DNA of 64,000 nucleotides from an uncultured Candidatus Saccharibacteria bacterium (GTDB lineage: Bacteria > Patescibacteriota > Minisyncoccia > Phycocordibacterales > JACOZG01): NCBI GenBank assembly GCA_964460805.1, contig CAYWPU010000002.1, forward strand, positions 18,663 to 82,662, written 5' to 3'. Each line of letters begins with the position of its first letter. The first letter of the stretch is position 1. Positions 1,509 to 32,402 of the stretch are shown here, one piece after another. The notes below the pieces were generated by a model. The model did no database searches and was not told the origin of the DNA. It saw only the letters and a list, made by a program, of their open reading frames with translations. The position numbers and the translations under genes are program-made.

Positions 1509-3035
1509 ATGGCCTCGCTCGCAGAGATCCGCGCTGAGAGGGAGAGGAAGTTGGCGCTCTTGCAGGAGCGCGGGCTGGAGGCGTATCCGGCTAGCACGCG
1601 CCGTGATCATACTCTGGCAGGGGTGGTGGCGAGCTTTGATAAATTAAGCAAGAGGAAGAAGGCGCTCTGGCTGGCTGGCCGCGTACGGGCGATCCGCGGC
1701 CAGGGCGCGATTTTGTTTATTGACTTAGACGACGGCACTGGCAAATTGCAGTTAGTTTTTAAGAAAGACGATTTGTCTGCAAAAGATTTTGCATTACTGG
1801 GAGAAGCTCTAGATATCGGTGATTTTATCCAGGCGAGCGGCACGCTCTTCTTAACTAAACGACAAGAGAAGAGCCTGGCCGTGCAGAGCTGGCAGATGCT
1901 AGTGAAAAGCTTGCGGCCACTGCCTGATAAGTGGCACGGCTTGCAAGATGTGGAAGAGCGTTACCGCCGGCGTTACTTGGATGCCTTGATGGCGCCGGAG
2001 GTGAAAGAGCGCTTCCTACTGCGTTCTAAAATTATTTCTGCGATCAGAGAGTTTTTAGATAATGAAGAATTTGTAGAAGTGGAGACGCCCGTGCTCCAAC
2101 TTGTGCCGGGTGGTGCCAGTGCCGAGCCGTTTATCACTCACCATAATGCGCTAGATATTGACTTGTATTTGCGCGTGGCGGAAGAGTTGTATCTCAAGAG
2201 ATTTCTAGTAGCTGGATTGCCAAAAGTTTATAGCATCGCGCGCAATTTCCGTAACGAGGGAATAGATCAGACGCATAATCCTGAATTCACTATGCTGGAG
2301 TGGTACGAGGCTTATAGCGATGCGGCCAAGCAGAGAGAATTTGTGGCTAAATTATTGCAAGCGCTGGTGAAGCAGATTTATAAAACCAAACACTTCACTT
2401 ATAACGGCGAGAAGATAGACTTGAGCAAAGACTTCGCAGTTGTTTCTTATTACGATTTATTGAAGCGTCACGCGCTCATCACCGAGCCGGATAAGATCAG
2501 TCGTGATGACCTAGCGCTCAAGGCGAGCCAGTTGGGTGTAAAGCTGGACGGCGGAGAGAGCCGAGAGAAGTTGCTAGATGCTGTTTATAAAAAAGTCTGC
2601 CGGCCTAAATTAATCCAGCCAACTTTCTTAATAGACTTCCCCGCGGATTATCTTCCGCTCGCCAAGCGCAAGAGCGATGATCCGAGCCTGGTAGACGCCT
2701 TTCAGCTAATCATCGGTGGCGTGGAGGTAGTTAAAGCGTTCTCGGAGTTAAACGATCCGGTGGATCAGCGTTTGAGATTTGCCGCTCAGGAGGCGAACAG
2801 AGAAGCAGGCGACGCCGAGGCGCAGAGGATTGATGAGGACTTCTTGGAAGCGCTGGAGTATGGCATGCCGCCGGCTGGCGGAGTGGGCATTGGTATTGAT
2901 AGACTAGTGATGTTGCTCACCGATACTCAGAATATTAAAGAAGTGATCTTCTTCCCCACACTTAAACCCAAGATTCAAGATACTAATAATGTTGAAGAAG
3001 CTAACGAAAATGAAAAAAATAATCTCACTGCGTAG
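1509..3035 (+). CDS. lysS: Lysyl-tRNA synthetase (class II) with a short Asn/Glu-rich C-terminal tail
   Basis: N-terminal OB-fold anticodon-binding region; class II motifs FRNEG and GGVGIGIDRLVM; typical LysRS architecture. Confidence 0.95.
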   Translation: MASLAEIRAERERKLALLQERGLEAYPASTRRDHTLAGVVASFDKLSKRKKALWLAGRVRAIRGQGAILFIDLDDGTGKLQLVFKKDDLSAKDFALLGEALDIGDFIQASGTLFLTKRQEKSLAVQSWQMLVKSLRPLPDKWHGLQDVEERYRRRYLDALMAPEVKERFLLRSKIISAIREFLDNEEFVEVETPVLQLVPGGASAEPFITHHNALDIDLYLRVAEELYLKRFLVAGLPKVYSIARNFRNEGIDQTHNPEFTMLEWYEAYSDAAKQREFVAKLLQALVKQIYKTKHFTYNGEKIDLSKDFAVVSYYDLLKRHALITEPDKISRDDLALKASQLGVKLDGGESREKLLDAVYKKVCRPKLIQPTFLIDFPADYLPLAKRKSDDPSLVDAFQLIIGGVEVVKAFSELNDPVDQRLRFAAQEANREAGDAEAQRIDEDFLEALEYGMPPAGGVGIGIDRLVMLLTDTQNIKEVIFFPTLKPKIQDTNNVEEANENEKNNLTA

Positions 3036-4560
3036 CAAGAGAGTCTGGTGGTTGCTGGCACTGGCGCTGGTTATTGTGATTGGTGGTGTGGTGGTTGCGG
3101 CGCGCAACGGCGAGGATAATGCTAATTTGATTGTCCTTGAGCCAGCCACACTAGAGCAGAGCGTAACCTTATCGGGGCAGGTCAAGCCGGCTGGTAAGGC
3201 GGATCTCGCTTTTGATCGTGCTGGACGCGTGGGTGCCGTTTTGGCCCAAGTGGGTGACCGGGTGGAGCTTGGCGCGGTGCTGGTGCGCTTGGCCAGTGGC
3301 ACTCTCTCGGCCGAGCTGGAGCGAGCTCAGGCTGACCTGGCCACAGAGCAGGCGCGCTTGGCCGAGCTGGAGCGTGGCGCCAGAGCCGAGGACTTGGCCG
3401 TGAGTCGGGCTGAGGTGGCGCGGCAGGAGGATGACTTTTTAGATAGTCAGAAGAATATGGTGTACGTTTTGCAAGACACCTTTGTGCGAGCCGATAATGC
3501 TCTGCGTTACGAGGCTGATCCGCTCTTCATCAGCCCGCGCAGTAGCTTGGCGCGTTTCGCCTTCAATACCAGCAACACTTCCCGGGCAGAGCGGGTGGCC
3601 GATTGGCGCAGCGACTTTGAGTACAAGATGGCCGATTGGCGCAATCAATTGCTTGCTCTCGGCGCTGGCAGTGACTTATCAGTTTATTATAGCCAGGCAA
3701 AGGCGATTCTCTTAGAGATGCAAGTTGGCTTTGATGATCTGGCTTATCTGGTTAATCTTGTTCCCTCTAGCGACACAGCCAATGGGATCACTGGCTCTGA
3801 GGCTCGGACCAAGATCTCCGCGGCTCGGGCGGCAATCAGTGCCGCGCTGGATGGCCTGGAGAGCGGCTGGCGGGACTATAATAGCTCTTGGAACGCTCTG
3901 GAGGTGGCCAAGCGGGAACTCTCGCTAGATTTGGCCGGTGCCTCGGCTGAGGAGGTCTCGGCCCAGGCCGCGCGAGTGCAGGCGGCCAGCGCCAGTGTGA
4001 GCGCCGCGCGGGCGGCCTTGGGTGAGTCGGTCTTGGTTGCGCCATTCCCGGCGTTGGTTACTTACCAAGAGGCGCGCGTGGGTGAGGTGGCAACTGCGGG
4101 AGTGGTGCTGGTTAAATTATCCGCCATTGATCCGTTTATTATAGAAGCCAATGTGCCGGAGGTAGATATTGTAAAAGTGAAGACGGGAGATATTGCTGCG
4201 GTTACGCTAGATGCTTACGGTCCCACGGTTGAGTTCCAGGCCACTGTTGGCCAGATTGATCCGGCTGAGACGGTGCTAGACGGCGTGCCGACTTATAAGA
4301 TTACTCTCCACTTCACCGCGCTTGATGAACGTATCCGTTCCGGCATGACAGCTAATATCTCACTTGCTACTGGCTTGCGTGAGGGCGTGCTAGCTGTGCC
4401 GCTCCGCGCGGTGAGCACCAGCTCTGGTCGCAGTACTGTGCGCGTTAAGAAAGGTGAAGAAATTTTTGAACAGGAAGTGGCGCTTGGCCTTGTCTCGTCT
4501 GACGGTCAAGTGGAAATTTTATCTGGTTTGCAGGCAGGAGATAAGGTGGTGATGCCTTAG
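2989..4560 (+). CDS. HlyD/MFP-family periplasmic adaptor protein (efflux or secretion adaptor) with no adjacent transporter partner
   Basis: N-terminal TM helix, a biotinyl/lipoyl-like beta hairpin (VKPAGKADL...VLVRL), a long coiled coil and a C-terminal beta-barrel. The start may instead be MKKII near 3010. Confidence 0.7.
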   Translation: MLKKLTKMKKIISLRSKRVWWLLALALVIVIGGVVVAARNGEDNANLIVLEPATLEQSVTLSGQVKPAGKADLAFDRAGRVGAVLAQVGDRVELGAVLVRLASGTLSAELERAQADLATEQARLAELERGARAEDLAVSRAEVARQEDDFLDSQKNMVYVLQDTFVRADNALRYEADPLFISPRSSLARFAFNTSNTSRAERVADWRSDFEYKMADWRNQLLALGAGSDLSVYYSQAKAILLEMQVGFDDLAYLVNLVPSSDTANGITGSEARTKISAARAAISAALDGLESGWRDYNSSWNALEVAKRELSLDLAGASAEEVSAQAARVQAASASVSAARAALGESVLVAPFPALVTYQEARVGEVATAGVVLVKLSAIDPFIIEANVPEVDIVKVKTGDIAAVTLDAYGPTVEFQATVGQIDPAETVLDGVPTYKITLHFTALDERIRSGMTANISLATGLREGVLAVPLRAVSTSSGRSTVRVKKGEEIFEQEVALGLVSSDGQVEILSGLQAGDKVVMP

Positions 4561-4748: not shown

Positions 4749-5183
4749 ATGCTGATCGGCGAATACAAACATACTCTGGATGAGAAGAAGCGCCTGGCAA
4801 TACCGGCTAAATGGCGTAAGGAGATTGGTCGCCAAGTGGTGATCACGCCCGGCTTGGATAACTGCTTGTTCGTTTACACCTTGCGGGAGTGGAAGAGAGT
4901 CTCGGAGAAGCTTGCTAGTCTCTCCATGTTGCGTGCCGATACGCGGAGCTTTAACCGCTTCATGCTCGCGGGCGCGGCGGAGAGCGATGTGGACAAGATG
5001 GGGCGGATCCTAGTTCCCGATCATCTCAAAGAGTTTGCTGGCTTGGGTACGCGCACGGTGGTGGCGGGAGTGCATAGCCGCCTGGAGATCTGGGACGAGA
5101 GCCGCTGGACTGCCTACAAGGCCGAGGTGGGCAAGCGTGCAGACGCGCTGGCGGAGAAATTGGGTGAGATTGGCGTCTTCTAG
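4749..5183 (+). CDS. mraZ: Transcriptional regulator MraZ
   Basis: MLIGEYKHTLDEKKRLAIPAKWRKE: duplicated MraZ/SpoVT-AbrB domains; first gene of the dcw cluster. Confidence 0.95.
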   Translation: MLIGEYKHTLDEKKRLAIPAKWRKEIGRQVVITPGLDNCLFVYTLREWKRVSEKLASLSMLRADTRSFNRFMLAGAAESDVDKMGRILVPDHLKEFAGLGTRTVVAGVHSRLEIWDESRWTAYKAEVGKRADALAEKLGEIGVF

Positions 5184-5215
5184 GCGCATCACTTCAGATT
5201 TTAGATTTAGATCAG

Positions 5216-6106
5216 ATGCATAAGCCGGTTCTTTTACAGGAAGTGCTAGAGGGTCTGGGGCCTCAAGCTGGGGAAACGGTATTGGATCTCACAGTCAATC
5301 GCGGCGGGCATAGCTTGGCGCTCTGCCAGGCGCTCTCTAGCACGGGGCAGCTGGTGGGGATAGATGCTGATAGCGAGGCCTTGCGCGAGGCGGCCCGGAA
5401 TCTCCGTGCTTGTCCCTGCTTGGTTACCTTGCTTGAGGGCAACTTCCGGCAACTGGATGAGCTCTTGCGCGTGGCCGGCATCGGCCAGGTGGATGTGATC
5501 CTCGCGGATCTTGGCCTGAGTAGCCAGCAATTAGACAGCGCCGGACGCGGCTTCTCGTTTAGCAGAGAAGAGCCGTTGGGGATGACTTTCAATCCCAAGC
5601 CGGAGCCTGGCGCGCTCTCCGCTTTTGAGATCGTCAACTTCTGGCAAGAAGAGAGCCTGGCTGATGTGATCTACGCCTATGGCGAGGAGCGCTTTGCCAA
5701 GAGGATCGCGCGGATGATTGTGCAAGCGCGGCAGAGTACGCCGATCTCTACCACCACGCAATTAGCTGAGATTATCCGGCAAGCAGTACCCAGCTGGTAT
5801 GCCCACGGCAAGCGCCATCCGGCCACCAAGACTTTTCAGGCGTTGCGGATCACCGTTAATGACGAACTAGGCGCGCTCAAGGATGGCCTCAATGCCGCCT
5901 GGCTCCGGCTCAAGACAGGTGGACGGCTGGGGGTAATCAGCTTCCATAGTCTAGAAGCAAGGATTGTGAAAGAGTTCTATCGCGCGCGGGAGGCAGAGGG
6001 AGCGGGGGAGATCTTAACCAGTCACGCTATTAAGCCAAGCCGCGCTGAAACTCTTGAGAACCCGCGCGCCAGGAGTGCGCAACTGAGAATCATTAAAAAA
6101 TTATAG
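5216..6106 (+). CDS. rsmH: 16S rRNA (cytosine1402-N4)-methyltransferase RsmH (MraW)
   Basis: MHKPVLLQEVLEGL...DLTVNRGGHS: SAM-dependent MTase fold in the canonical position after mraZ. Confidence 0.95.
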   Translation: MHKPVLLQEVLEGLGPQAGETVLDLTVNRGGHSLALCQALSSTGQLVGIDADSEALREAARNLRACPCLVTLLEGNFRQLDELLRVAGIGQVDVILADLGLSSQQLDSAGRGFSFSREEPLGMTFNPKPEPGALSAFEIVNFWQEESLADVIYAYGEERFAKRIARMIVQARQSTPISTTTQLAEIIRQAVPSWYAHGKRHPATKTFQALRITVNDELGALKDGLNAAWLRLKTGGRLGVISFHSLEARIVKEFYRAREAEGAGEILTSHAIKPSRAETLENPRARSAQLRIIKKL

Positions 6107-6127
6107 AAAATTAAAAAAGTTAAAAAC

Positions 6128-6457
6128 ATGACAGCTAGTAATTTAAATATTTTATATACTCGTCAACGCCTCTTTTGGCGTTGTTTAGCTGTCGCTGTTT
6201 TGCTCTTGGCCAGCTATCTTTATCTGGTAAATAGCGCGGTTTTTAATCTCGTTGCCCGTGAGCGCTTGCTCGGTAATCTTAATGAAATGCGCAGTAACGT
6301 GGTAGCTCTAGAGTCCGAATATTTGGCATTATCTGGGCAAGTCACAATGGAGTTGGCCCGCGAGCGCGGCTTCCACGACGCCACGGCTAGTGCGATCTTT
6401 GTAGAATTGCCAACCCAGAGCTCTGTGGTGGCTCTCGCTCCGGCTGTGCTAGAATAG
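6128..6457 (+). CDS. ftsL: FtsL-like cell-division protein (single TM helix plus coiled coil)
   Basis: 109 aa with an N-terminal TM segment and coiled coil, lying between rsmH and ftsI as expected for FtsL. Confidence 0.5.
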   Translation: MTASNLNILYTRQRLFWRCLAVAVLLLASYLYLVNSAVFNLVARERLLGNLNEMRSNVVALESEYLALSGQVTMELARERGFHDATASAIFVELPTQSSVVALAPAVLE

Positions 6458-6463
6458 GCGATT

Positions 6464-8167
6464 ATGGCGGTTAATCCGGTCTTGCGGATAAGGCTTATTT
6501 CTCTTGCGATTTTTCTTTTTTCTGTGTTGCTTATTGCGCGCTTATTTTTTCTCCAAGTTGTTAAGAGTGATTTCTATACCGAGCGGGCGGATCGCCAGTA
6601 TCAGCGTCCGGCTGCAACTCTGGCCGAGCGAGGAGTGATCTCTTTCCGGCAAAAAGATGGACAATTGGTCTCGGCGGCCAGCATGCGTGATGGCTTCCTT
6701 GCCGCCATCAATCCCAGAGTTTTGCAGAATCCGGAAGCTGTCTATGAGCGCCTGTCGTCACTAGTTGATCTAGACCGCGATGTTTTCTCTCGGGCCACGC
6801 AGGCCAATGCTACTCACAGAGAGATTGCGACCAAACTGAACGAGAAGCAGGCCGAGACGATCAAGAGCTGGGAGATCCCAGGCCTCGGTGTGCTCAAGAG
6901 CCGCTGGCGCTTCTATCCCGCAGGCCGCACCGCCAGCCACGTGCTGGGCTTGGTCAATTATGAGGGAGAGGGAGTCTATGGTTTAGAAAAAGAATATGAT
7001 GATGTGCTGGTGCGTGATGAAGATCAGACCTTTAGCAGTTTCCTCGCAGAAGTATTATCAGACGTGGGTAGCGCCTTGTTTAGCCGCGACACTAACCAAA
7101 CAGAAGCGGATCTCGTTTTGACTATTGAACCAGTGGTCCAAGATACGCTGGAGACCGAGCTCTCTGCGCTCAAGGATAAGTACAATGCCGAGTCTGCCGG
7201 GGCGGTGATCATGGATCCGGTGACGGGCGAGATTATCGCTATGGCGGCCTTGCCCGACTTTGACCCCGGCGCGAGGCAGAGCAGCTTGGAGCCGCTGGCT
7301 AATCCGTTGGTAGAACGGACTTATGAAATGGGCTCCACCTTCAAGCCCCTCACCATGGCCGCGGCGCTGGATGCTGGCGTGGTTAAGGCCTCTACCACGT
7401 ATGATGACCGTGGCACGCTCACGATTAATAACAAAGTGATCAGCAATTATGACGGTCGAGCACGAGGCGTGGTGCCCATGCAGGAGGTGCTCAACCAGTC
7501 GCTCAATACCGGAGTGGTGTTTGCGATGCAGAAATTAGGTCAGGAACGCTTCCGCAATTATGTGGTCAATTTTGGCCTTACCGAGGAGACTGGCGTAGAC
7601 TTGCCTGGCGAGGTGGTGGGGAATAATAATAACTTGCTCCAGAGTAACCGCGAGATTGAATATGCCACCGCCTCATACGGCCAGGGGATCACAGTTACGC
7701 CACTAGCTCTAACTCGTGCTCTGGCCGCGCTGGCTAACGGTGGTCGCTTGGTGCGTCCGCACGTGGTGGCCGAGATCAAGCGCCATGACTCCAAACTCTC
7801 CGAGCTCACACAGCCTGAGCTGGGTCGGCAGGTCATCAAGCCGGAGACTAGCAAGGAGATCACCCGGATGCTGGTGGAGGTGGTAGACACAGCGCTGGTG
7901 GGCGGCAAGTACAAGATGGATCGTTATCGCATTGCGGCTAAGACAGGCACCGCGCAACAAGCACGCCTCTCCGGCGGCGGTTACGATCCGGAGCGCTTCT
8001 TGCACTCCTTCTTTGGCTATTTCCCCGCCAGTGATCCGCAGTTTATTATTTTTATCTATTTAGTCCGGCCGATTGGCGCGCGTTATGCCTCTGACACTTT
8101 ATCAGCGCCATTTATGTCTCTGACTAAATTTTTGCTAAACTATTATAATGTTCCGCCAGATCGCTAA
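6464..8167 (+). CDS. ftsI: Peptidoglycan D,D-transpeptidase FtsI (class B PBP)
   Basis: N-terminal TM helix, dimerisation domain and transpeptidase motifs STFKP (SxxK), SxN and KTGTA. Confidence 0.9.
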   Translation: MAVNPVLRIRLISLAIFLFSVLLIARLFFLQVVKSDFYTERADRQYQRPAATLAERGVISFRQKDGQLVSAASMRDGFLAAINPRVLQNPEAVYERLSSLVDLDRDVFSRATQANATHREIATKLNEKQAETIKSWEIPGLGVLKSRWRFYPAGRTASHVLGLVNYEGEGVYGLEKEYDDVLVRDEDQTFSSFLAEVLSDVGSALFSRDTNQTEADLVLTIEPVVQDTLETELSALKDKYNAESAGAVIMDPVTGEIIAMAALPDFDPGARQSSLEPLANPLVERTYEMGSTFKPLTMAAALDAGVVKASTTYDDRGTLTINNKVISNYDGRARGVVPMQEVLNQSLNTGVVFAMQKLGQERFRNYVVNFGLTEETGVDLPGEVVGNNNNLLQSNREIEYATASYGQGITVTPLALTRALAALANGGRLVRPHVVAEIKRHDSKLSELTQPELGRQVIKPETSKEITRMLVEVVDTALVGGKYKMDRYRIAAKTGTAQQARLSGGGYDPERFLHSFFGYFPASDPQFIIFIYLVRPIGARYASDTLSAPFMSLTKFLLNYYNVPPDR

Positions 8168-9440
8168 ACACAGCATCGCGCGCTTTTTAAGATTAGAAGC
8201 GCGCTTAATCCTCCGCAAATATCGCCCCAAGATCATTGCTGTTACCGGCAATGTTGGCAAGACAGGCACCAAAGAGGCGATTAAAGCCGTACTCGCTACT
8301 AAATATAGAGTGCGGGCGAATCAAAAGAGCTTTAATAGCGAGCTGGGCGTGCCGCTCACGATCCTCGGTTGTGATAATCCGTGGTGGGATCCAATTGCTT
8401 GGCTAAAGGTCTTTCTGGAGGGCTTAGTCTTGATCCTCTTCCGCTCGCAGTATCCTGAGTGTCTAGTATTAGAAGTGGGTGTGGATCGCCCGGGCGATAT
8501 GCGGGAGATCGTGAGCTGGCTCCGGCCGCAGGTGGCGGTGGTCACGCGCCTGCCGGACTTGCCCGTGCATGTGGAATATTTTGATTCGCCCGAGCAGGTG
8601 GCGGCGGAGAAGTGGCTGCTCGCCCAAGCCGTGCCAGAGTCTGGCGTAGTGATCTATAACGCTGATGATGAGAAAGTGCGCGAGCTGGCTACTAGTCTCA
8701 AGTGCCAGACGCTTGGCTACGGTCTTGCTGAACTAGCCCAAGTGCACGGCTCTGATGCCAAGATTAATTACACTGATGATAAGCCGGTTGGCCTTGCTTT
8801 GAAAGTTGATTATCTTGGCGATAGCACGCCCTTCCAGCTCTCGGGAGTGCTTGGCTTGCATCAGATCTATCCACTCTTGGCGGCTGCTGCTCTTGGCGTG
8901 GAGGAGGGGATCAACTTGGCAGAAATGAGCCAGGCCTTGGCGAGCATTAGCCTGCCGCCTGGCCGGATGCGCCTCTTGGCTGGTATCAAAGACACGGTCA
9001 TTATTGACGACACTTATAACTCTTCCCCAGCCGCGCTGGAGGCGGCGCTGGAGACGATGAGCGACTTGCGTGTGGCCGGGCGCAAGATCGTGGTGCTAGG
9101 GGACATGTTGGAACTGGGGCCGCATACCATTGAGGCTCATCGCCGGGCAGGAGCGCAAGCCGCGCGCGTGGCGCACTTGCTGGTGACAGTAGGCCTGAGG
9201 ATGAAGTTTGCTACGGAAGAGGCAAGCAGGAAGAAGATGGGTAAAAAGTCCCTGCACCACTTTGATGATTCCCGTGCGGCCGGTGCCTGGCTGCAGAACG
9301 AGATCCAGCCTGGCGATGTGATCTTGGTGAAAGGCTCGCAGTCGCTCCGCATGGAGCGCGCCGTGGAGGAGATCATGGCCGAGCCGGAGAAGCGGAAGGA
9401 CCTGCTGGTGCGGCAAGAGCCAGAGTGGCTGAAAAAGTAG
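8148..9440 (+). CDS. murF: Mur ligase family protein, MurF-like (UDP-MurNAc-tripeptide--D-Ala-D-Ala ligase); short N-terminus
   Basis: P-loop VTGNVGKTGT near the N-terminus and an IIDDTYNSSPAALEAAL motif like MurF DDSYNANP. It sits in the dcw cluster after ftsI. Confidence 0.65.
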   Translation: MFRQIAKHSIARFLRLEARLILRKYRPKIIAVTGNVGKTGTKEAIKAVLATKYRVRANQKSFNSELGVPLTILGCDNPWWDPIAWLKVFLEGLVLILFRSQYPECLVLEVGVDRPGDMREIVSWLRPQVAVVTRLPDLPVHVEYFDSPEQVAAEKWLLAQAVPESGVVIYNADDEKVRELATSLKCQTLGYGLAELAQVHGSDAKINYTDDKPVGLALKVDYLGDSTPFQLSGVLGLHQIYPLLAAAALGVEEGINLAEMSQALASISLPPGRMRLLAGIKDTVIIDDTYNSSPAALEAALETMSDLRVAGRKIVVLGDMLELGPHTIEAHRRAGAQAARVAHLLVTVGLRMKFATEEASRKKMGKKSLHHFDDSRAAGAWLQNEIQPGDVILVKGSQSLRMERAVEEIMAEPEKRKDLLVRQEPEWLKK

Positions 9441-9579: not shown

Positions 9580-10155
9580 ATGGCCGAAGATATTTTTTCC
9601 TACGTATTACTAATCGGGATTGTTAGTAGTGGTATATGGGGTATTTCTGTAAAAGTTCGAGAACTTTCTAGTTTTGTGAAAAAGAACGGATGGCGACCTA
9701 TTAGGAATAAGATTAAGCAATTTTTTATTAACATACTCCGGGTCACGGTTTATACCATTGTTGGGCTCGGATATTTGTTTGGCCTTGTTTTTATACCCAT
9801 TCGGTTTGAGTGGATTCTAGGCAATGAAGCACGCACAAATGTTTTTATGATCTGCTATCTCTTTTTAGGTTTTCTTGTTTTTTATTATATGAATGGAACA
9901 AAAAGAAGAGGCACGAAAAATCCTGTCGCTATTCTCTCAGAAGATTTCATTTCCTTTAAAAATGGTATAAAAGAATTTATACAAGGGTTGGATGTTTTAA
10001 TGACCGTACTTTTTGCTTTAGGAAGATGGCTACTCACTATTCTCGGAGTGATTACAATTACTGTCCTTGGAGTTTGGTTAATTGTGGCTCTGGGACCTCT
10101 TTGGATTATCGCCATTATACTTACTCTCATTCTGTTGGTACAGATAGGTCGATGA
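9580..10155 (+). CDS. Hypothetical polytopic membrane protein (191 aa) on a ~37 % GC islet
   Basis: At least four hydrophobic helices. AT-rich composition contrasts with ~55 % GC flanks. Lies immediately 3' of the tRNA-Glu. Confidence 0.7.
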   Translation: MAEDIFSYVLLIGIVSSGIWGISVKVRELSSFVKKNGWRPIRNKIKQFFINILRVTVYTIVGLGYLFGLVFIPIRFEWILGNEARTNVFMICYLFLGFLVFYYMNGTKRRGTKNPVAILSEDFISFKNGIKEFIQGLDVLMTVLFALGRWLLTILGVITITVLGVWLIVALGPLWIIAIILTLILLVQIGR

Positions 10156-10238: not shown

Positions 10239-11594
10239 ATGTCTCGTCTCTGGCGGCAAGCGGTTCCGGCCTGGGTGGTGCTCATTTTGATCCTGCTCGC
10301 GGCAGGCGCTTTTCTCTATTACCGCCAGCCGCTCTATCGTTACGACCTGGTGGTGCCCAGCTTACCCGGCGAGGCGGAGGACTCTGGCTTGGTCTATGGC
10401 GCCAATCCGCAACTCTCTAATCAAGACTTCTTCCAGCGGGCGCGGCAGGCGTTTATCAGCCAGCAGGCGAGCTTTGTGGAGGCTGATCTCTCTGAGCTCA
10501 AATTGCGGGTCTATGAGGCGGGCGTGGTAGCTCTGGAAGTGCCGATCTTGGCCAAGGGGAGAGAAGGCTCTTGGTGGGAGACGCCGGCGGGCTTGTATAA
10601 GATAGAGACCAAAGCGCGCAATCACTTCTCTTCTTTTGGACAAGTTAACCAGCCGTGGAGCATGGCCTTCCAGGGCAATTTCTTCATCCATGGCTGGCCG
10701 GAGTATCCGGATGGCCGGCCAGTCTCCAGTCAGTTCTCCGGCGGCTGTATCCGGCTCTCCAACGAGGATGCCGCGCGGGTCTACCAGCTCGCCAGCATTG
10801 GCATGCCGGTTTTGGTCTTCAATTCTGTTTCAGTCTCTGACAACAGAGTATTTGCTATCCGGAAGCCGGAACTAAGCGCCACACACTACCTCGCGGCTGA
10901 CTTAGACAGCAATTTTGTTTTCCTGGCTCATCGTGAACGCGAACAAGTGCCGCTGGCTTCTATTACTAAATTAGTTACGGCTCTCGTTTCTGCCGAATAT
11001 ATCAATTTAGACGCGTCAGTTTTGGTCACCGAGCAAATGTTAACAGCTTCCACTTCTCGCCCGCGCTTGGTGCCGGGCCAGAGCCACACGGCCTACCAGT
11101 TGCTCTTCCCGCTCTTGCTGGAGAGCAGTAACGAGTCTGCTGAGGCGCTGGCGCGAGTGGCTGGCCGCGAGCGCTTTATCAAACTGATGAACGATAAGGC
11201 CAGAGCCATTGGCATGACAGACACGCGCTTTGCTGATCCCTCTGGTATCTCAGCCAGCAATATTTCTACTGCTGAAGATATTTTCACTCTCGCTAAATAT
11301 ATAGAGTCTAACCGGAGCTTTATCTTCAAGCTCACGGCGGGTGACCTCACCACTAGCGCCTACGGCGCGCCGAGCTTCCCTAATCTCCAGAATCTCAACG
11401 ACTTTGGCGCCGATCCGCGCTTCCTGGGAGGCAAGGTGGGCTTAGCCACGCTCGCGGGCGAGACGGCGGTTTATGTTTTTAGAGTAAATATCGCTGGCGA
11501 AGAGCGCCGCGTTGCGCTGGTCTTGCTGGGCGCAAGCGACCGAGTAAGCGACGCCAGATTGATGCTAGACTATATCACTACCCAGTTTCAGTAA
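10239..11594 (+). CDS. Fusion protein: L,D-transpeptidase (YkuD domain) plus D-alanyl-D-alanine carboxypeptidase (S11/PBP5-like)
   Basis: N-terminal TM helix. YkuD motif HGWPEYPDG...SGGCIRLSNEDA (His/Cys catalytic pair). C-terminal half carries SITK (SxxK), SSN (SxN) and a GKVG (KTG-like) motif. Confidence 0.8.
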   Translation: MSRLWRQAVPAWVVLILILLAAGAFLYYRQPLYRYDLVVPSLPGEAEDSGLVYGANPQLSNQDFFQRARQAFISQQASFVEADLSELKLRVYEAGVVALEVPILAKGREGSWWETPAGLYKIETKARNHFSSFGQVNQPWSMAFQGNFFIHGWPEYPDGRPVSSQFSGGCIRLSNEDAARVYQLASIGMPVLVFNSVSVSDNRVFAIRKPELSATHYLAADLDSNFVFLAHREREQVPLASITKLVTALVSAEYINLDASVLVTEQMLTASTSRPRLVPGQSHTAYQLLFPLLLESSNESAEALARVAGRERFIKLMNDKARAIGMTDTRFADPSGISASNISTAEDIFTLAKYIESNRSFIFKLTAGDLTTSAYGAPSFPNLQNLNDFGADPRFLGGKVGLATLAGETAVYVFRVNIAGEERRVALVLLGASDRVSDARLMLDYITTQFQ

Positions 11595-28761: not shown

Positions 28762-29859
28762 TTAGCGGTTCAGATATTTAGAGATATTAACGATGATACC
28801 AGCTTCAATCAAGACTAATAACAAAGCCGTTCCGCCTTGACTCACAAACAACAACGGGGTGCCATTGAGCGGCACCAAGCTGAGCATTGAGGCGATATTA
28901 ATGAAGACGCCGGCGATGATCATTATAACAATGCCGACTATCAGCAGTCTACTAAAGTGGTTTGGCGCTCTAGTTGAAAGCTTAAGGCCAGATAAGGCGA
29001 AAGCGAGAAAGAGCAGAACCAGAATAGTGCTACCAGCGAGGCCGAACTCTTCCCCAGCTACGGAAAAGATAGAATCACCGATTGGTTCTGGTAAGTACTT
29101 AAACTTTTGGATACTCTGGCCAAAGCCGCGCCCCAGCACGCCGCCAGAGCCAATGGCAATTAGCGATTGATTGACCTGGTAAGAGTTGCCGAGCACGTCC
29201 TCGTTTGGCTTAAAAAAAGTCTGGATCCTGGCTTGAGTATAAGGCTTGAAGGCGATGACTGTCCCCAACGCCAGGCTTGCTATCAGCAAGAGCAAGGCGA
29301 GGTCCCGCCAGCGCGCACCGGCCACAAAGTACATTGCTACTCCACTCGCAAGCATGATACCGAGCGTGCTCATGTCTGGTTGGGCGACCATCACAGCGCC
29401 CACTATGCCGGTGACAATAAGGAAGGGCAGCAAACCGTGTTTAACCGACTGCACACCCTCTCGCGCTTTAGCCAGCCAAGCGGCGAGATAAACCACATAG
29501 CCTAATTTAAGGAATTCTGAAGTCTGGATAGAGATGCCGGCGATACTGATCCAGCGTCGTGCGCCTTTGAGGTCTAGACCTAAACCGGGGATGAAGACAG
29601 CAAGAGTGAAGAGTAAGCTGGCTACAAAAATTGCCAAGCTGAACTTTTGCCAGTATCTGTAATGCAGTTTACTCACTAGGAGGAAGGCGAATAGTCCGAT
29701 GAGCATGATCACAAACTGCTTAACGGCAACCAGATTGAAGCGCGCGCCTTCCCTACTCAGCAAGCCAAGCGAGGCGGAAAAGAAGATGAAGAAGCCGGTC
29801 AAGGTAAGCAGGATGACCAGAGCAAAGAAGATGCGATCAGATTGGCGGCCGCGGTTCAT
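28762..29859 (-). CDS. ftsW: SEDS-family peptidoglycan glycosyltransferase FtsW
   Basis: Ten-TM SEDS topology with conserved loop motifs; sits between murG and mraY. Confidence 0.9.
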   Translation of the reverse strand: MNRGRQSDRIFFALVILLTLTGFFIFFSASLGLLSREGARFNLVAVKQFVIMLIGLFAFLLVSKLHYRYWQKFSLAIFVASLLFTLAVFIPGLGLDLKGARRWISIAGISIQTSEFLKLGYVVYLAAWLAKAREGVQSVKHGLLPFLIVTGIVGAVMVAQPDMSTLGIMLASGVAMYFVAGARWRDLALLLLIASLALGTVIAFKPYTQARIQTFFKPNEDVLGNSYQVNQSLIAIGSGGVLGRGFGQSIQKFKYLPEPIGDSIFSVAGEEFGLAGSTILVLLFLAFALSGLKLSTRAPNHFSRLLIVGIVIMIIAGVFINIASMLSLVPLNGTPLLFVSQGGTALLLVLIEAGIIVNISKYLNR

Positions 29860-30944
29860 TGGCTAGCGAGGATGATAATCACACCCAAGATGGCAGTAAT
29901 AACGCTGATAATCCAATAACGCATCACCACCTTGCCGCTAGGCCAGCCAATTGCCTCAAAGTGATGGTGCAATGGCGCTACCAGGAAGAGCTTCCGTCCG
30001 CGGAACTTTTTTGACAAGAGCTGGAGGATGACTGAACCGGAAGAGAGTACTAATGGCAGGGCGATGATCGGCAGGACCAGTATCCCGTGTCCCCCGCCCA
30101 GGTTATCGGTCATGAAGGCGACAACGGTGAGAGTGATGGTAAGCGCCATTGTGCCAGTCTCGGAGAGATAATAACGAGCGGGCGGGATATTGAACCAGAG
30201 AAAAGCGAGAATCCCGCCCAATATGGCGGCGCAGAAGGCGGCGAGATTAATTTGATTTTGCGAGAAGGCGATGACACCATAAGCGGCAAAACTGCTGGCA
30301 AAGACGCCGCCCGCTAAGCCGTCTAGGCCGTCAATCACGCCGCCAGAGTAAACCGCCAGGCTAATGATAGCGAAGATCGGTATTAGCCAGATCCCAACGT
30401 CCAGAGAACCCAGGGTGCTATCACTGCCAATGCTGATTACGCCCAGCTTGCTATAGAACCAATAACCGCAGAATAATCCTAGTGCTGTGATGGTGAACAG
30501 GCGCTTGCTGAGCGAGAGTCCTCCGCCGATATATTCCCCGCTATTGCCGGTCCCTTCTCTGGTGACTAAGTAATCATCTATTAAGCCAACCAAGGCGCCT
30601 ACCAGGAGCGTCATCAGTGGGATCCAGGTCTGGTTGCGAGAGAGAAAGTCTAATTTAACACTTAGCTCGCCAGGCAAGAGCGCGGCCCAGGTCCAGATAC
30701 CCAGAGTGGTGAGCGTCGCGCTCAGCCAGACAATAATCCCGCCCATGCGGGGTGTCTTCTTTTGTTCATCATTGTGGATAGAGGCAGAAATAGTGGCAAC
30801 TTGGCCGTCTATCGTCTTCCGCACGCTCTGCTTTTTCCACATTTTATGCTTGTAGAGATAATTGGTGAGAGCTGGCGTAAGGATAATACCCAAGATGAAA
30901 GAGAAAGTGATCGGCAACAGAACTTTAATGACATCAATCAGCAT
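29856..30944 (-). CDS. mraY: Phospho-N-acetylmuramoyl-pentapeptide transferase MraY
   Basis: Polytopic protein with MraY DD/DG loop motifs (LIDDYL, GLDGLAGG). Confidence 0.95.
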   Translation of the reverse strand: MLIDVIKVLLPITFSFILGIILTPALTNYLYKHKMWKKQSVRKTIDGQVATISASIHNDEQKKTPRMGGIIVWLSATLTTLGIWTWAALLPGELSVKLDFLSRNQTWIPLMTLLVGALVGLIDDYLVTREGTGNSGEYIGGGLSLSKRLFTITALGLFCGYWFYSKLGVISIGSDSTLGSLDVGIWLIPIFAIISLAVYSGGVIDGLDGLAGGVFASSFAAYGVIAFSQNQINLAAFCAAILGGILAFLWFNIPPARYYLSETGTMALTITLTVVAFMTDNLGGGHGILVLPIIALPLVLSSGSVILQLLSKKFRGRKLFLVAPLHHHFEAIGWPSGKVVMRYWIISVITAILGVIIILASQ

Positions 30945-30954
30945 ATTTTTTAAA

Positions 30955-31494
30955 TTAGTTTTTGACTGGATTGCTGTTACTCAACTTCTCTTTCAGTTTG
31001 TCATAATCTGGTAGGTCGCTCACCTGGCTCAAGCCAAGATGCTGGAGCAGTTCAAAAGTGGGACGATAGAGAAAACTGCGAGCATCGGCCGGATTAGGCA
31101 CGCGCTCCACCAAGCCGCGGATCATCAAGTGGCGTAAAATAAAACTAGAATTGACTCCTCGGATATAGTCCAAGTCTGCGCGAGAAATTGGCCCGCGGTA
31201 GAGCACTGTGGTGAGTGTCTCCAAACTAGCTTTACCCAGGTCGCGAGAGAGAGCCTCTTTTGCTAATTTCTCTAGCAATGCGCTCGCGTCTGGATGTGTG
31301 CCCAGAGCAAGCTCATCATCTTTTTGGACTAAAATTACACCACGATTCTGGCTAGAGAGCGTGTGTTGTAATTTTGCCAGTGCTTCAAGCACTTCAGCCC
31401 GACTCCGGCCCAAGACGCGAGCCAGTTCTGCCTGGCTCATTGGCTCGGCTTGCCGGAACAGGATCGCCTCAATCTGTGCTTCTAGACTCAACAT
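30955..31494 (-). CDS. scpB: Segregation and condensation protein B
   Basis: MLSLEAQIEAILF....MSQAELARVLG: tandem winged-helix ScpB. Start trimmed to the internal ATG, which is preceded by TTGTCT-17-TATAAT. Confidence 0.9.
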   Translation of the reverse strand: MLSLEAQIEAILFRQAEPMSQAELARVLGRSRAEVLEALAKLQHTLSSQNRGVILVQKDDELALGTHPDASALLEKLAKEALSRDLGKASLETLTTVLYRGPISRADLDYIRGVNSSFILRHLMIRGLVERVPNPADARSFLYRPTFELLQHLGLSQVSDLPDYDKLKEKLSNSNPVKN

Positions 31495-31546
31495 CTTTAT
31501 CTTGGCAATTATAGTCGTTCCAGCCCTTTTAGACAATAAATTAGGC

Positions 31547-31586
31547 AATAAAAAAGGTCCCGGCTGCCTCGCACGCAACCGGGACC
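31547..31586 (-). terminator. Intrinsic terminator after scpA (- strand)
   Basis: The reverse complement reads ggtcccgg-15nt loop-ccgggacc-TTTTTTATT. Confidence 0.6.
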
Positions 31587-31664
31587 AACTATCCGCGCAG
31601 CTCCCGCTCCGCACTCACACAACGTGTGTAAGCCGGGTCATACTATACTAGCCTGGCAAAGTTG

Positions 31665-32402
31665 TCAAATATATTTGGGCACATCAGCTGAGCTGGGCTC
31701 AATCTGGATATCCGCAAAGTGCTCGCCTTGCTCTGCTTGTACCAGCCCTCGCTTTACCAGTTCCAACATTCCCAAGAAGCTCACGATCACGTTTACTTTC
31801 TCTTTTTTATCTTTAATAAAATCATGGAAGCTCGTCTTGAGCGCCGTCTGCACTCGCTGGGCTAGACTCTCTATCACTTCTTCCAGATTCAAGACTTTCT
31901 GCACTATCACTTGCGGCAGTTTTTCTATCTTTGGCAGATTATTGATCACGTTGTTCACCGAGGCGAGGAGGCTCTGCAGAGTCAGATCACGACTGGGAGC
32001 AAAAACGGACACAATCTCTTTGCTCTCCTGGCGCGAAAAAATAATTTTCCTGCCATAATTCTTCTTCACATTTTCGCTCAGCTTTTTGATTTCAGCATAA
32101 AGTGCCAATCGCCGCTCCAAATCCGCCATACTCCCCTGCTCCTCTTCGCTCACCTTCAGTTCCGGCAAGAGCGAGATAGACTTGATGAGCATCAGTGTGC
32201 TGGCGACCAAGATAAAGTCAGCCATTTGCGCTTTGCTCGCGTTATGATCATTTTCTAATTTATCTAAGTGCGAGATAAAATCATCGGCCACTGCTGCCAG
32301 CGAGACGCGTGAGATGTGCATCTTCTTCTCTTCCACCAGCCTCAGCAAGACCTCCAGTGGCCCCTCAAAGTCTTCCAGCTTGATCTGAAATTTGACAGTC
32401 AT
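31665..32402 (-). CDS. scpA: Segregation and condensation protein A
   Basis: MTVKFQIKLEDFEGPLEVLLRLVEEKKM... is a canonical ScpA N-terminus. Confidence 0.9.
   Translation of the reverse strand: MTVKFQIKLEDFEGPLEVLLRLVEEKKMHISRVSLAAVADDFISHLDKLENDHNASKAQMADFILVASTLMLIKSISLLPELKVSEEEQGSMADLERRLALYAEIKKLSENVKKNYGRKIIFSRQESKEIVSVFAPSRDLTLQSLLASVNNVINNLPKIEKLPQVIVQKVLNLEEVIESLAQRVQTALKTSFHDFIKDKKEKVNVIVSFLGMLELVKRGLVQAEQGEHFADIQIEPSSADVPKYI

Follow-up and report, generated by a model that had tools for sequence, protein, structure and literature searches.

A single open reading frame in the 64,000-nt window (the whole stretch of DNA analysed here) encodes both a YkuD-type L,D-transpeptidase domain and a Peptidase_S11 D,D-peptidase domain. 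The ORF, at 10239..11594 on the + strand, has an ATG start and specifies a lone polypeptide of 451 aa followed by a stop codon. The ORF list, Pfam, three assemblies and the homologues all support a complete frame, in the order transmembrane anchor, YkuD domain, short conserved linker and S11 domain. We lean towards the view that the product is a membrane-anchored, extracytoplasmic, bifunctional stem-peptide enzyme of Paceibacteria/Parcubacteria-type Patescibacteria, in which the S11 half would supply tetrapeptide stems and the YkuD half would use them for 3-3 cross-linking. By analogy with known systems, the reading we prefer is that tetrapeptide supply is coupled to 3-3 cross-linking; which substrates are used, in what order the two reactions run and that they end in 3-3 cross-links is likewise what we infer.

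Architecture of the fusion

The first-pass annotation had described one polypeptide joining a YkuD domain to a PBP5-like D,D-carboxypeptidase. The fusion itself holds: both Pfam matches are above their cut-offs and the architecture is conserved in homologues. The YkuD (L,D-transpeptidase catalytic) domain occupies aa 79-193 (10473..10817, + strand) and was assigned by Pfam and by alignment to LdtMt5; the match to PF03734 has E = 9e-15 and 56 bits, against a cut-off of 23.4, and covers profile positions 3-146 of 146. The Peptidase_S11 domain (serine D,D-peptidase, low-molecular-weight PBP) lies at aa 206-432 (10854..11534, + strand) and is supported by Pfam, PDB and Foldseek matches; PF00768 is matched over profile positions 4-237 of 239 (E = 1.6e-25, 90.4 bits, cut-off 27.6). 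Residues P190 and D201, in the linker between the two domains, are invariant. From the end of the S11 domain to the C-terminus at aa 451 there are 19 residues, with no additional Pfam domain. In the AlphaFold2 (AF2) model both domains are confident, with a mean pLDDT of 91.8; the pTM is only 0.65, so the inter-domain geometry is not fixed by it.

An N-terminal transmembrane helix was identified at aa 8-26, AVPAWVVLILILLAAGAFL (10260..10316, + strand), from Kyte-Doolittle hydropathy and the AF2 model. Averaged over 19 residues, Kyte-Doolittle hydropathy exceeds 1.6 in this segment alone, where it peaks at 2.6, and AF2 predicts a helix at aa 11-28. Such a helix would put the YkuD and S11 domains outside the cytoplasmic membrane.

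A frameshift or stop codon between the two halves was looked for, and the identical 451-aa product was obtained from runs SRR33243633, DRR774217 and DRR774219. These three independent runs, together with hundreds of homologues that have an uninterrupted architecture and a conserved linker, rule out a frameshift artefact or a chimeric contig. The chance that adjacent genes were merged by a frameshift, or that the contig is a chimera, is consequently regarded as negligible.

Active sites of the two halves

Conservation was assessed over 113 sequences with a mean column identity of 49%, and the homologues span 100% of the query length. All the motifs quoted in the first-pass annotation (HGW, SGGCIRL, SITK, SSN and GKVG) were located in the ORF, in register with solved homologues. 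In the YkuD half, the catalytic histidine is His151 (codon 10689..10691, + strand), which is invariant and begins the H151-G-W tripeptide (10689-10697) in the context IHGWP. The active-site motif S167-G-G-C170-I-R172-L is at 10737..10757 (+ strand), with the codon of the nucleophile, Cys170, at nt 10746-10748. H151, S167, G168, G169, C170 and R172 are invariant in 113/113 sequences, and alignment to LdtMt5 (6d5a/4z7a) places IHGWP over IHANP and GGCIRLS over NGCINLS, so that both the His and the Cys motif are in register. Similarity to solved L,D-transpeptidases is weak, the best YkuD match in the PDB having E = 4e-4.

In the S11 half, the SxxK motif is S241-I-T-K244 (10959..10970, + strand), providing the nucleophilic serine and the general-base lysine; it is invariant in 113/113 sequences and corresponds to the SITK of 6muq. 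Loss of the catalytic Ser or Lys was looked for, and both are present here and invariant in the 113 homologues. The SxN motif, S296-S-N298 (11124..11132, + strand), aligns with S-E-N of 6muq and S-G-N of 4rye, and S296, S297 and N298 are invariant in 113/113, as are the flanking E295 and E299. The third motif, K399-V400-G401 (11433..11441, + strand), is a variant of KTG on the beta-3 strand, falling within the AF2-predicted strand 395-403; K399 and G401 are invariant, and GGKVG aligns with GGKTG of 4rye.

The KTG motif is otherwise nearly universal in penicillin-binding proteins, and K-V-G had been taken to raise the question of whether the S11 half is fully active. Among the 113 sequences the residues at position 400 are V (76), I (26), T (6), M (4) and S (1), ie V/I/M is the clade consensus (106/113) and T/S occurs in 7/113. 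The variant is therefore clade-wide and not a private defect, the catalytic residues are invariant, and relatives in which S11 is truly dead show all of its motifs decayed together. The doubt is thereby largely answered, although Val400 itself may affect activity. A second substitution is nearly private to this protein: position 403 is Ala here, and Thr or Ser in 106/113 relatives. With Val400 in place of Thr, and Ala403, substrate binding by the S11 half may differ.

The description of the S11 half as PBP5-like did not stand. The best sequence matches in the PDB are 6muq, 6azi, 4rye, 4ppr and 3mfd, the last being the catalytic domain of B. subtilis DacB (E about 1e-17), and the best scores overall go to short, single-domain PbpG/PBP7 and DacB enzymes; E. 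coli PBP5 matches with E of only about 1e-4. The PBP5-type C-terminal beta-sandwich and amphipathic membrane helix are absent, and the anchor is instead the N-terminal helix, the sole hydrophobic segment. Foldseek comparison with the same PDB chains gave target-normalised TM-scores of 0.65-0.80, which confirms the S11 fold. The NCBIfam models resemble the S11 half without claiming it, as it falls under every equivalog cut-off: the top model, the PbpG/PBP7 DD-endopeptidase NF008668, gives 89 bits against a cut-off of 294, the DacA model NF008059 gives 23.2 bits against 694, and the DacC/DacD-type models give 36-37 bits against 610-765. The S11 half is thus nearest to short PBP7/DacB-type enzymes, and by sequence it may be either a carboxypeptidase or an endopeptidase.

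If the S11 half were a PBP7-like D,D-endopeptidase, it would cut 4-3 links and the YkuD half would rejoin the freed tetrapeptide as a 3-3 link, so that mature wall could be remodelled or repaired without new precursor. This exchange of one cross-link for another is consistent with the rank of the PbpG model (89 bits, compared with 23 for DacA), with the annotation of 6muq and 6azi, the best PDB sequence matches, as DD-endopeptidases, and with the missing PBP5-type C-terminal domain, which is missing in PBP7 also; on general grounds, a hydrophobic residue where KTG has its Thr might suit a leaving group that is not free D-Ala. However, the carboxypeptidases M. tuberculosis DacB2 (4rye) and DacB1 (4ppr) and B. 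subtilis DacB (3mfd) practically tie with the endopeptidases in sequence (5e-17 versus 1e-17) and rank first in Foldseek, and the PbpG score is far under its model's cut-off. We consider it an unlikely account of the protein.

Reaction sequence and lineages with one inactive half

In the preferred reading, tetrapeptide supply for 3-3 cross-linking, the S11 half would form an acyl-enzyme at the D-Ala4 carbonyl of the stem peptide through Ser241, with participation of Lys244, Ser296/Asn298 and Lys399, followed by hydrolysis. As a carboxypeptidase the S11 half would free D-Ala5, and as an endopeptidase it would free the acceptor stem of a 4-3 cross-link; in both cases a tetrapeptide stem would remain. 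Cys170 and His151 of the YkuD half would then attack the bond between residue 3 and D-Ala4 of the tetrapeptide to give a thioester, and the tripeptide would be passed to the side-chain amine of an adjacent stem, yielding the 3-3 cross-link. The fusion would ensure a 1:1 local supply of the sole donor which an L,D-transpeptidase accepts. In C. difficile, according to PMC13344953, the tetrapeptide donors required by L,D-transpeptidases are made by DD-carboxypeptidases.

The chemistry of the YkuD half admits another outcome, in which S11 takes off D-Ala5 and YkuD, acting as an L,D-carboxypeptidase, takes off D-Ala4, leaving tripeptide stems and no 3-3 links; cross-linking would then be limited or tuned, or recycling fed. 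The YkuD fold also serves for L,D-carboxypeptidase, D-amino-acid exchange and protein-anchoring reactions, and the sequence cannot tell transpeptidation by this half from any of these, nor does it discriminate between successive trimming and cross-linking. Trimming is in keeping with a weak match to the L,D-carboxypeptidase ElsL (E = 0.007) and with the SGGC found here in place of the SHGC common in cross-linking L,D-transpeptidases (SHGC is seen in the 5bmq alignment). The ElsL match, however, reaches 16 bits against a cut-off of 270 and covers the active-site segment alone, and characterised extracytoplasmic YkuD enzymes mostly transpeptidate, with hydrolysis secondary. The L,D-transpeptidases of C. 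difficile do yield tripeptide as well, by a carboxypeptidase activity (PMC10980060). Our estimate is that trimming by both halves is improbable.

Among sister lineages at 42-44% identity, some lack one catalytic centre and some the other. In one (P0139) the S11 motifs are gone, reading AISR, EGSRMS and GGMFG, and in another (P0153) the YkuD cysteine is lost (SSGGIRL). Across 150 family representatives, 51 are without an intact S11 motif set and keep the YkuD His and Cys; 39 of these 51 have residues at all scored positions and 12 are gapped, several being truncated proteins. A further 16 of the 150 are without the YkuD His/Cys. Gaps at a scored alignment position, several of them through truncated proteins, affect 18 of the 67 defective representatives in all. 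Where S11 is dead, all of its motifs have decayed together. Where the YkuD cysteine is lost, 16/16 keep K-[V/I/L]-G with intact S, K and SxN, ie a K-V-G-type S11 is the only catalytic half left intact. Idle catalytic residues thus do decay in this family, and the fact that none has been lost in the present clade points to selection for activity, which argues that both halves are catalytically active in this protein.

The same lineages bear on whether the YkuD half could be the only catalytic one, with S11, weakened by Thr400Val and Ala403, serving mainly as a stem-peptide or D-Ala-D-Ala binding module, a targeting module or a structural partner, a part it has to play wherever its own catalytic residues have been lost. 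The 51/150 representatives which keep the YkuD His/Cys without an intact S11 set imply that a non-catalytic S11 is viable, and this protein lacks the Thr of KTG and carries the nearly private Ala403. Against this, S241, K244, S296, N298, K399 and G401 are invariant in 113/113 sequences, which is not expected of a mere binding module; moreover, the S11 motifs decay jointly in the dead lineages and the lineages without the YkuD cysteine retain an intact S11. We think it quite unlikely that the S11 half has no catalytic part in the present protein.

The lineages with a dead half show that the domain pair can persist without both activities. It is conceivable, though rather unlikely, that YkuD-S11 is an obligate two-domain machine peculiar to Paceibacteria-type Patescibacteria in which each domain also serves the other non-catalytically, for instance by substrate presentation or allostery. 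That would explain the full-length retention of the dead domain in the S11-dead and YkuD-dead lineages. The fully active form, to which the present protein would belong, would then be a dedicated single-polypeptide route to a 3-3 cross-linked wall. K-V/I-G would adapt the S11 site to a substrate or leaving group that is non-canonical, and its beta-lactam affinity might be lower as a result. No active copy was found beside the S11-dead or YkuD-dead variants on their contigs, which are short (3.9 and 7.5 kb).

Distribution, known systems and genomic neighbourhood

The YkuD-S11 fusion is old, widespread and common in Patescibacteria. A homologue search gave at least 1352 matches, and the best 120 of the 1352 all have YkuD plus S11; clustering at 50% identity gave at least 150 clusters with the architecture. 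Species-representative genomes contain 354 candidate stretches, ie up to 354 species genomes may carry it, and all the matches named to a taxon are from Patescibacteria. Besides forms with both halves active and the S11-dead and YkuD-dead forms, the family has a triple fusion with PGA_cap. Public databases already list the family, with automatically assigned names; each domain is a textbook enzyme, and nothing is mechanistically unprecedented. A literature search found no published description or experimental study of the YkuD-S11 architecture; subscription journals were thinly covered by it, and the absence is not proof.

Both halves can be set beside characterised enzymes. The YkuD half shares PF03734 and the His ... 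S-x-G-C-x-R pattern with B. subtilis YkuD, LdtMt2/LdtMt5, E. faecium Ldtfm and E. coli YcbB/LdtD, and those enzymes are extracytoplasmic through an N-terminal anchor, as the fusion protein would be. A point of difference is the residue preceding G-C, which is Gly in the fusion protein and not His or Lys. Known YkuD-family enzymes bear accessory domains which are non-catalytic (LysM, PG-binding, Ig-like). The short S11 enzymes PBP7/PbpG (6muq, 6azi), DacB2 Rv2911 (4rye/4p0m) and DacB1 Rv3330 (4ppr) are the best sequence and fold matches to aa 206-432, with an identity of only 26-30% and target-normalised Foldseek TM-scores of 0.68-0.80; SxxK, SxN and the K and G of KTG are aligned, and the PBP5-type C-terminal domain is lacking in them as in the fusion protein. 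Unlike them, the fusion protein has its S11 domain downstream of YkuD, and K-V/I-G replaces KTG in its clade. E. coli PBP5/DacA belongs to the same family S11 and has the same three active-site motifs, but the match is much weaker, and it has its own C-terminal beta-sandwich and amphipathic helix where the fusion protein has an N-terminal transmembrane anchor.

To our knowledge, the D,D-peptidase and L,D-transpeptidase steps are on separate proteins in every organism studied. E. coli PBP5 plus YcbB and E. faecium DdcY plus Ldtfm are two-protein DD-carboxypeptidase/L,D-transpeptidase pathways, in which the proteins are regulated separately; the fusion, in contrast, would unite both activities in a single chain through its short conserved linker, and coupling between them would follow by analogy. 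L,D-transpeptidases accept only tetrapeptide donors, and therefore cells reliant on 3-3 links depend on a D,D-peptidase. A conserved natural fusion is independent evidence, of the Rosetta-stone type, for coupling of the D,D-peptidase to the L,D-transpeptidase, and offers a compact system for structural study of the hand-over between active sites. Paceibacteria are a large uncultivated group, for whose wall chemistry the fusion makes a first concrete, testable prediction, namely 3-3 cross-links in the peptidoglycan. The K-V/I-G variant, like the reciprocal catalytic losses among the sister lineages, is a natural experiment on the contribution of each half. C. difficile has the same two chemistries in the proposed order in DacA/DacC plus Ldt1-5 (PMC13344953), also on separate proteins. 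For none of the enzymes covered by a 2025 review of L,D-transpeptidases (PMC12729407) is a fusion to a PBP-type peptidase described.

In the window the fusion gene closes a division and cell-wall cluster comprising MraZ, RsmH, FtsI, a MurF-type ligase and then an ORF without an assigned function. A search of the 64 kb at E <= 1e-3 turned up no further YkuD or S11 gene, and a promoter and terminator scan around the fusion gene gave nothing beyond the shuffled expectation. Synteny was examined by tblastn of MraZ, RsmH, FtsI, the MurF-type ligase, the 191-aa membrane ORF, Obg and RmuC against 80 related loci. Conserved synteny with cell-wall genes was not found among these, MraZ-RsmH-FtsI being upstream in one locus (L071) of the 80. 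A conserved operon partner was rejected, as the flanking ORFs gave only partial patterns across the 80 loci. A DUF4015-type protein is upstream in 13 of them (Pfam-assigned for the L085 neighbour only), and clustering of the flanking ORFs showed ScpA-ScpB, a stand-alone S11 gene and MraY, in that order, downstream in about 15.

Architecture of the fusion protein

The open reading frame at 10239..11594 (+) of the window begins with ATG and encodes a protein of 451 aa. Two Pfam-A domains were found in it, YkuD (PF03734) at aa 79-193, E = 9e-15 with 56 bits against a cut-off of 23.4, and Peptidase_S11 (PF00768) at aa 206-432, E = 1.6e-25 with 90.4 bits against a cut-off of 27.6. The YkuD motifs are IH151GWP and S167GGC170IR172L, and those of the S11 half are S241ITK244, ES296SN298E and GGK399V400G401. 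Residue-by-residue alignment with solved structures placed SITK on the SITK of the Yersinia DD-endopeptidase 6muq, S-S-N in register with S-E-N of 6muq and S-G-N of M. tuberculosis DacB2 (4rye), GGKVG in register with GGKTG of 4rye, and IHGWP and GGCIRLS in register with IHANP and NGCINLS of LdtMt5 (6d5a). Since the domains exceed their cut-offs and the motifs are in register with the catalytic motifs of solved homologues, these are not chance matches. The first-pass annotation had placed the YkuD, SxxK, SxN and K-V-G motifs in this one frame, and its coordinates are exact. The S11 catalytic Ser and Lys, whose loss had been considered, are both present on alignment, and neither a frameshift nor a stop, named beforehand as grounds against the fusion, lies between the halves. 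The identical product is encoded, with the same neighbouring genes, on contigs of three independent sequencing runs (SRR33243633, DRR774217 and DRR774219). The fusion is not an assembly artefact, an explanation to which we attach next to no weight given the identical ORF in all three runs.

The sole hydrophobic stretch, aa 8-26 (Kyte-Doolittle mean 2.6), is predicted to be helical, and the protein is probably bitopic, which would leave its two catalytic domains outside the membrane. In an AlphaFold2 model (113 homologues) both domains are confident, with a mean pLDDT of 91.8. The inter-domain linker (aa ~194-215) is short and the positions P190 and D201 are invariant, which hints at a fixed domain arrangement rather than a loose tether, the pTM of only 0.65 leaving the inter-domain geometry unsettled. 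Foldseek against the PDB matched the S11 half only (4rye, 4p0m, 3mfd, 6muq, 4ppr), and no solved chain spanning both halves was among the best matches listed (query-normalised TM-score <=0.48).

Retention and loss of the two catalytic centres

Conservation was determined over 113 sequences whose identity to the window protein is 48-82% (mean column identity 49%). H151, G152, W153, S167, G168, G169, C170 and R172 are invariant in the YkuD half, as are S241, K244, E295, S296, S297, N298, E299, K399 and G401 in the S11 half. For the wider family, 150 representatives were aligned to the family profile and scored at the catalytic positions. Both catalytic sets are kept in 84. In a further 51 the YkuD His and Cys are in place and the S11 motif set is not intact; 39 of them show a residue at each scored position and 12 have alignment gaps, several being truncated proteins. 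The reverse, S11 kept and the YkuD pair not intact, is seen in 16, usually with Gly or Ser in place of Cys; gaps affect six of them, and 18 of all 67 one-sided cases. Pairwise BLASTP gave an example of each kind. In the homologue P0139 (locus L084:2448-3836, 44% identical) the S11 half reads PIGAISRL, EGSRMS and GGMFG and SGGCIRLS is intact; in P0153 (locus L085:5418-6926, 42% identical) the YkuD half reads SSGGIRL and PIASVTKL, ESSNEA and GKVG are intact. The dead domain stays full length in these reciprocal pseudo-enzymes.

Catalytic residues that are no longer used thus decay quickly in this family, several motifs together. That they are strictly retained in the clade of the window protein is good evidence for the use of both centres in that clade. 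The 51 representatives with an intact YkuD pair and an incomplete S11 set would suit an S11 half that serves mainly in binding or targeting, as in the S11-dead lineages, but the invariance of the catalytic S11 residues throughout the 113 sequences makes this a decidedly poor prospect for the window protein.

Doubt had been cast on the activity of the S11 half by its K-V-G motif. The substitution is not peculiar to this protein: at position 400, 76 of the 113 sequences have V, 26 have I, 6 have T, 4 have M and 1 has S, so that a V, I or M is found in 106. In the wider family with intact Ser241, Lys244 and Lys399 it is T (31), V (21), I (18), N (14) or S (11), and the stand-alone S11 paralogues near the fusion in related loci have the canonical GGKTG in all those listed. 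All 16 of the YkuD-dead members have K-[V/I/L]-G with S, K and SxN intact. An inactive K-V-G-type S11 is hard to reconcile with these proteins, because it would be their only intact catalytic half. The Thr/Ser hydroxyl of KTG touches the carboxylate of the substrate or beta-lactam in penicillin-recognising enzymes, and a hydrophobic residue may still alter the binding of either. Nearly private to the window protein is Ala403, a position occupied by Thr or Ser in 106/113 relatives and by Thr in the closest, P0002 (81% identical).

Affinity of the S11 half and the proposed reaction

The S11 half had been described as PBP5-like; it proved nearer to the short PBP7/DacB-type enzymes. Of the NCBIfam models the PbpG/PBP7 endopeptidase scored best, 89 bits compared to 23 bits for DacA, all scores being far below the equivalog cut-offs. 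The short single-domain proteins 6muq and 6azi (annotated endopeptidases) were among the best PDB matches, at E about 1e-17, a value shared by the short single-domain mycobacterial DacB2 and DacB1 (4rye, 4p0m, 4ppr) and by B. subtilis DacB (3mfd), whereas E. coli PBP5 was far weaker (E about 1e-4). The PBP5 C-terminal domain is absent and the anchor is N-terminal. Because endopeptidases and carboxypeptidases score equally, the bond cleaved, D-Ala4-D-Ala5 or D-Ala4 to the cross-bridge, cannot be assigned from these matches. The PbpG/PBP7 score would accord with a swap of 4-3 for 3-3 cross-links by an endopeptidase and an L,D-transpeptidase, but with carboxypeptidases scoring equally we consider the swap unlikely.

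The best-supported reading, towards which we lean modestly, is that the protein processes stem peptides in two steps at the external face of the membrane. The architecture, the catalytic residues with their conservation and the anchor are shown by the analysis; the substrates, order of steps and product are inferred and would be as follows. The D-Ala4 carbonyl would acylate Ser241 of S11, and hydrolysis would yield the tetrapeptide stem; Cys170 of YkuD would attack the bond between residue 3 and D-Ala4 of the tetrapeptide, and YkuD would join the resulting tripeptidyl group to an adjacent stem as a 3-3 cross-link. It is established that L,D-transpeptidases use only tetrapeptide donors, made by DD-carboxypeptidases; in C. 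difficile, for instance, DacA and DacC feed the L,D-transpeptidases (PMC13344953), whereas here S11 and YkuD are on one chain. Sequential trimming, in which a DD-carboxypeptidase followed by an LD-carboxypeptidase would shorten the stem to the tripeptide, seems improbable. To our knowledge the Paceibacteria cell wall has never been analysed, and the fusion makes a testable prediction for it, ie 3-3 cross-links.

Distribution and genomic context

At least 1352 proteins match the window protein at E <= 1e-5 in a search limited to 8000 candidates, and PF03734 and PF00768 are both present in all of the 120 best. Wherever the source name gave a taxon it was patescibacterial (Paceibacterota, Parcubacteria, Taylorbacteria, Liptonbacteria, Wolfebacteria). 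When 1.84 billion representatives at 50% identity were searched exhaustively with a profile, 1973 proteins reached E <= 1e-30; of the best 150 (all E <= 1e-97) nearly all span both domains in one stretch, a few being truncated fragments. Seeding with the divergent K-T-G-type member P0236 again gave only Patescibacteria names (Giovannoni-, Sung-, Vogelbacteria), and some of the entries are in UniRef. With each GTDB species represented by a single genome, a scan yielded 354 stretches encoding a relative; the 80 loci kept are from Patescibacteria-type MAGs (labelled Wolfe-, Taylor-, Colwell-, Lipton-, Harrison-, Vogel-, Kaiser- and Nomurabacteria, or by pipeline 'uncultured Saccharibacteria') or are labelled only as unclassified 'bacterium'.

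This is an old and abundant architecture, which public databases already contain under automatic names such as 'L,D-transpeptidase family protein', 'D-alanyl-D-alanine carboxypeptidase' and even 'D-alanyl-D-alanine endopeptidase (PBP7)'. The window protein is one member of this large, apparently undescribed family. No published description was found in a full-text literature search, with most subscription journals outside its reach, nor did a check of a December 2025 L,D-transpeptidase review for fusions, S11 and domain architectures turn one up. YkuD and S11 are textbook enzymes and the functional link between their activities is well known, so a specialist would not be astonished. Of real interest are the natural, conserved fusion itself, which among the named matches is limited to Patescibacteria, the reciprocal pseudo-enzyme derivatives, the clade-wide K-V/I-G variant and the abundant triple fusions with PGA_cap. 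These YkuD-Peptidase_S11-PGA_cap (CapA-like) proteins of 740-820 aa are many in Patescibacteria (P0173, P0193, P0197, P0320-P0378), and in P0215 the order is PGA_cap-YkuD-S11.

In the window the fusion gene is preceded by a truncated division/cell-wall cluster (4749-9440, +) of MraZ (4749-5183), RsmH (5216-6106), an FtsI-type class B PBP (6464-8167) and a Mur ligase of MurF type (8148-9440), the first 20 nt of which overlap the PBP gene; FtsL might lie in the unannotated 357-nt gap between RsmH and the PBP. Obg and RmuC come after the fusion. Synteny is not conserved, MraZ-RsmH-FtsI being upstream in only 1/80 related loci. Elsewhere ScpA, ScpB, a stand-alone S11 gene and MraY are often downstream, with FtsW further downstream in a few. 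In about 15/80 loci (eg L024:8746-9846, L017:4174-5247, L030:2915-3952) that stand-alone peptidase (300-400 aa) is the third gene after the fusion, with ScpB before it and MraY behind; by tblastn it is absent from the ScpB-MraY position of the window. A protein of ~433-443 aa is directly upstream of the fusion in 13/80 related loci (eg L024 ORF 6) and is not beside it in the window; its equivalent upstream of the YkuD-dead P0153 (L085:3766-5097) is a DUF4015 protein by Pfam. The context thus points only loosely to a 'cell-wall gene' and identifies no fixed partner.

The window's own ScpA (32396-31701), ScpB (31491-30988), MraY (30953-29859) and FtsW/RodA homologue (29595-28777), located by tblastn, form a block of chromosome-segregation and cell-wall genes on the reverse strand (28777-32396). 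Behind a class II aminoacyl-tRNA synthetase of D/K/N type (1509-3035, +) comes a 523-aa protein that carries a HlyD-type membrane-fusion domain (2989-4560, +); as called, its ORF overlaps that of the synthetase by 47 nt and may truly start further downstream. The MurF-type ligase is separated from the fusion gene by a 191-aa membrane ORF (9580-10155, +) that has several hydrophobic segments and matches nothing in Pfam. It has a GC of 0.34, compared to 0.5-0.6 in neighbouring genes, occurs on each of the organism's three independent contigs and not in related loci, and may be a recent insertion.
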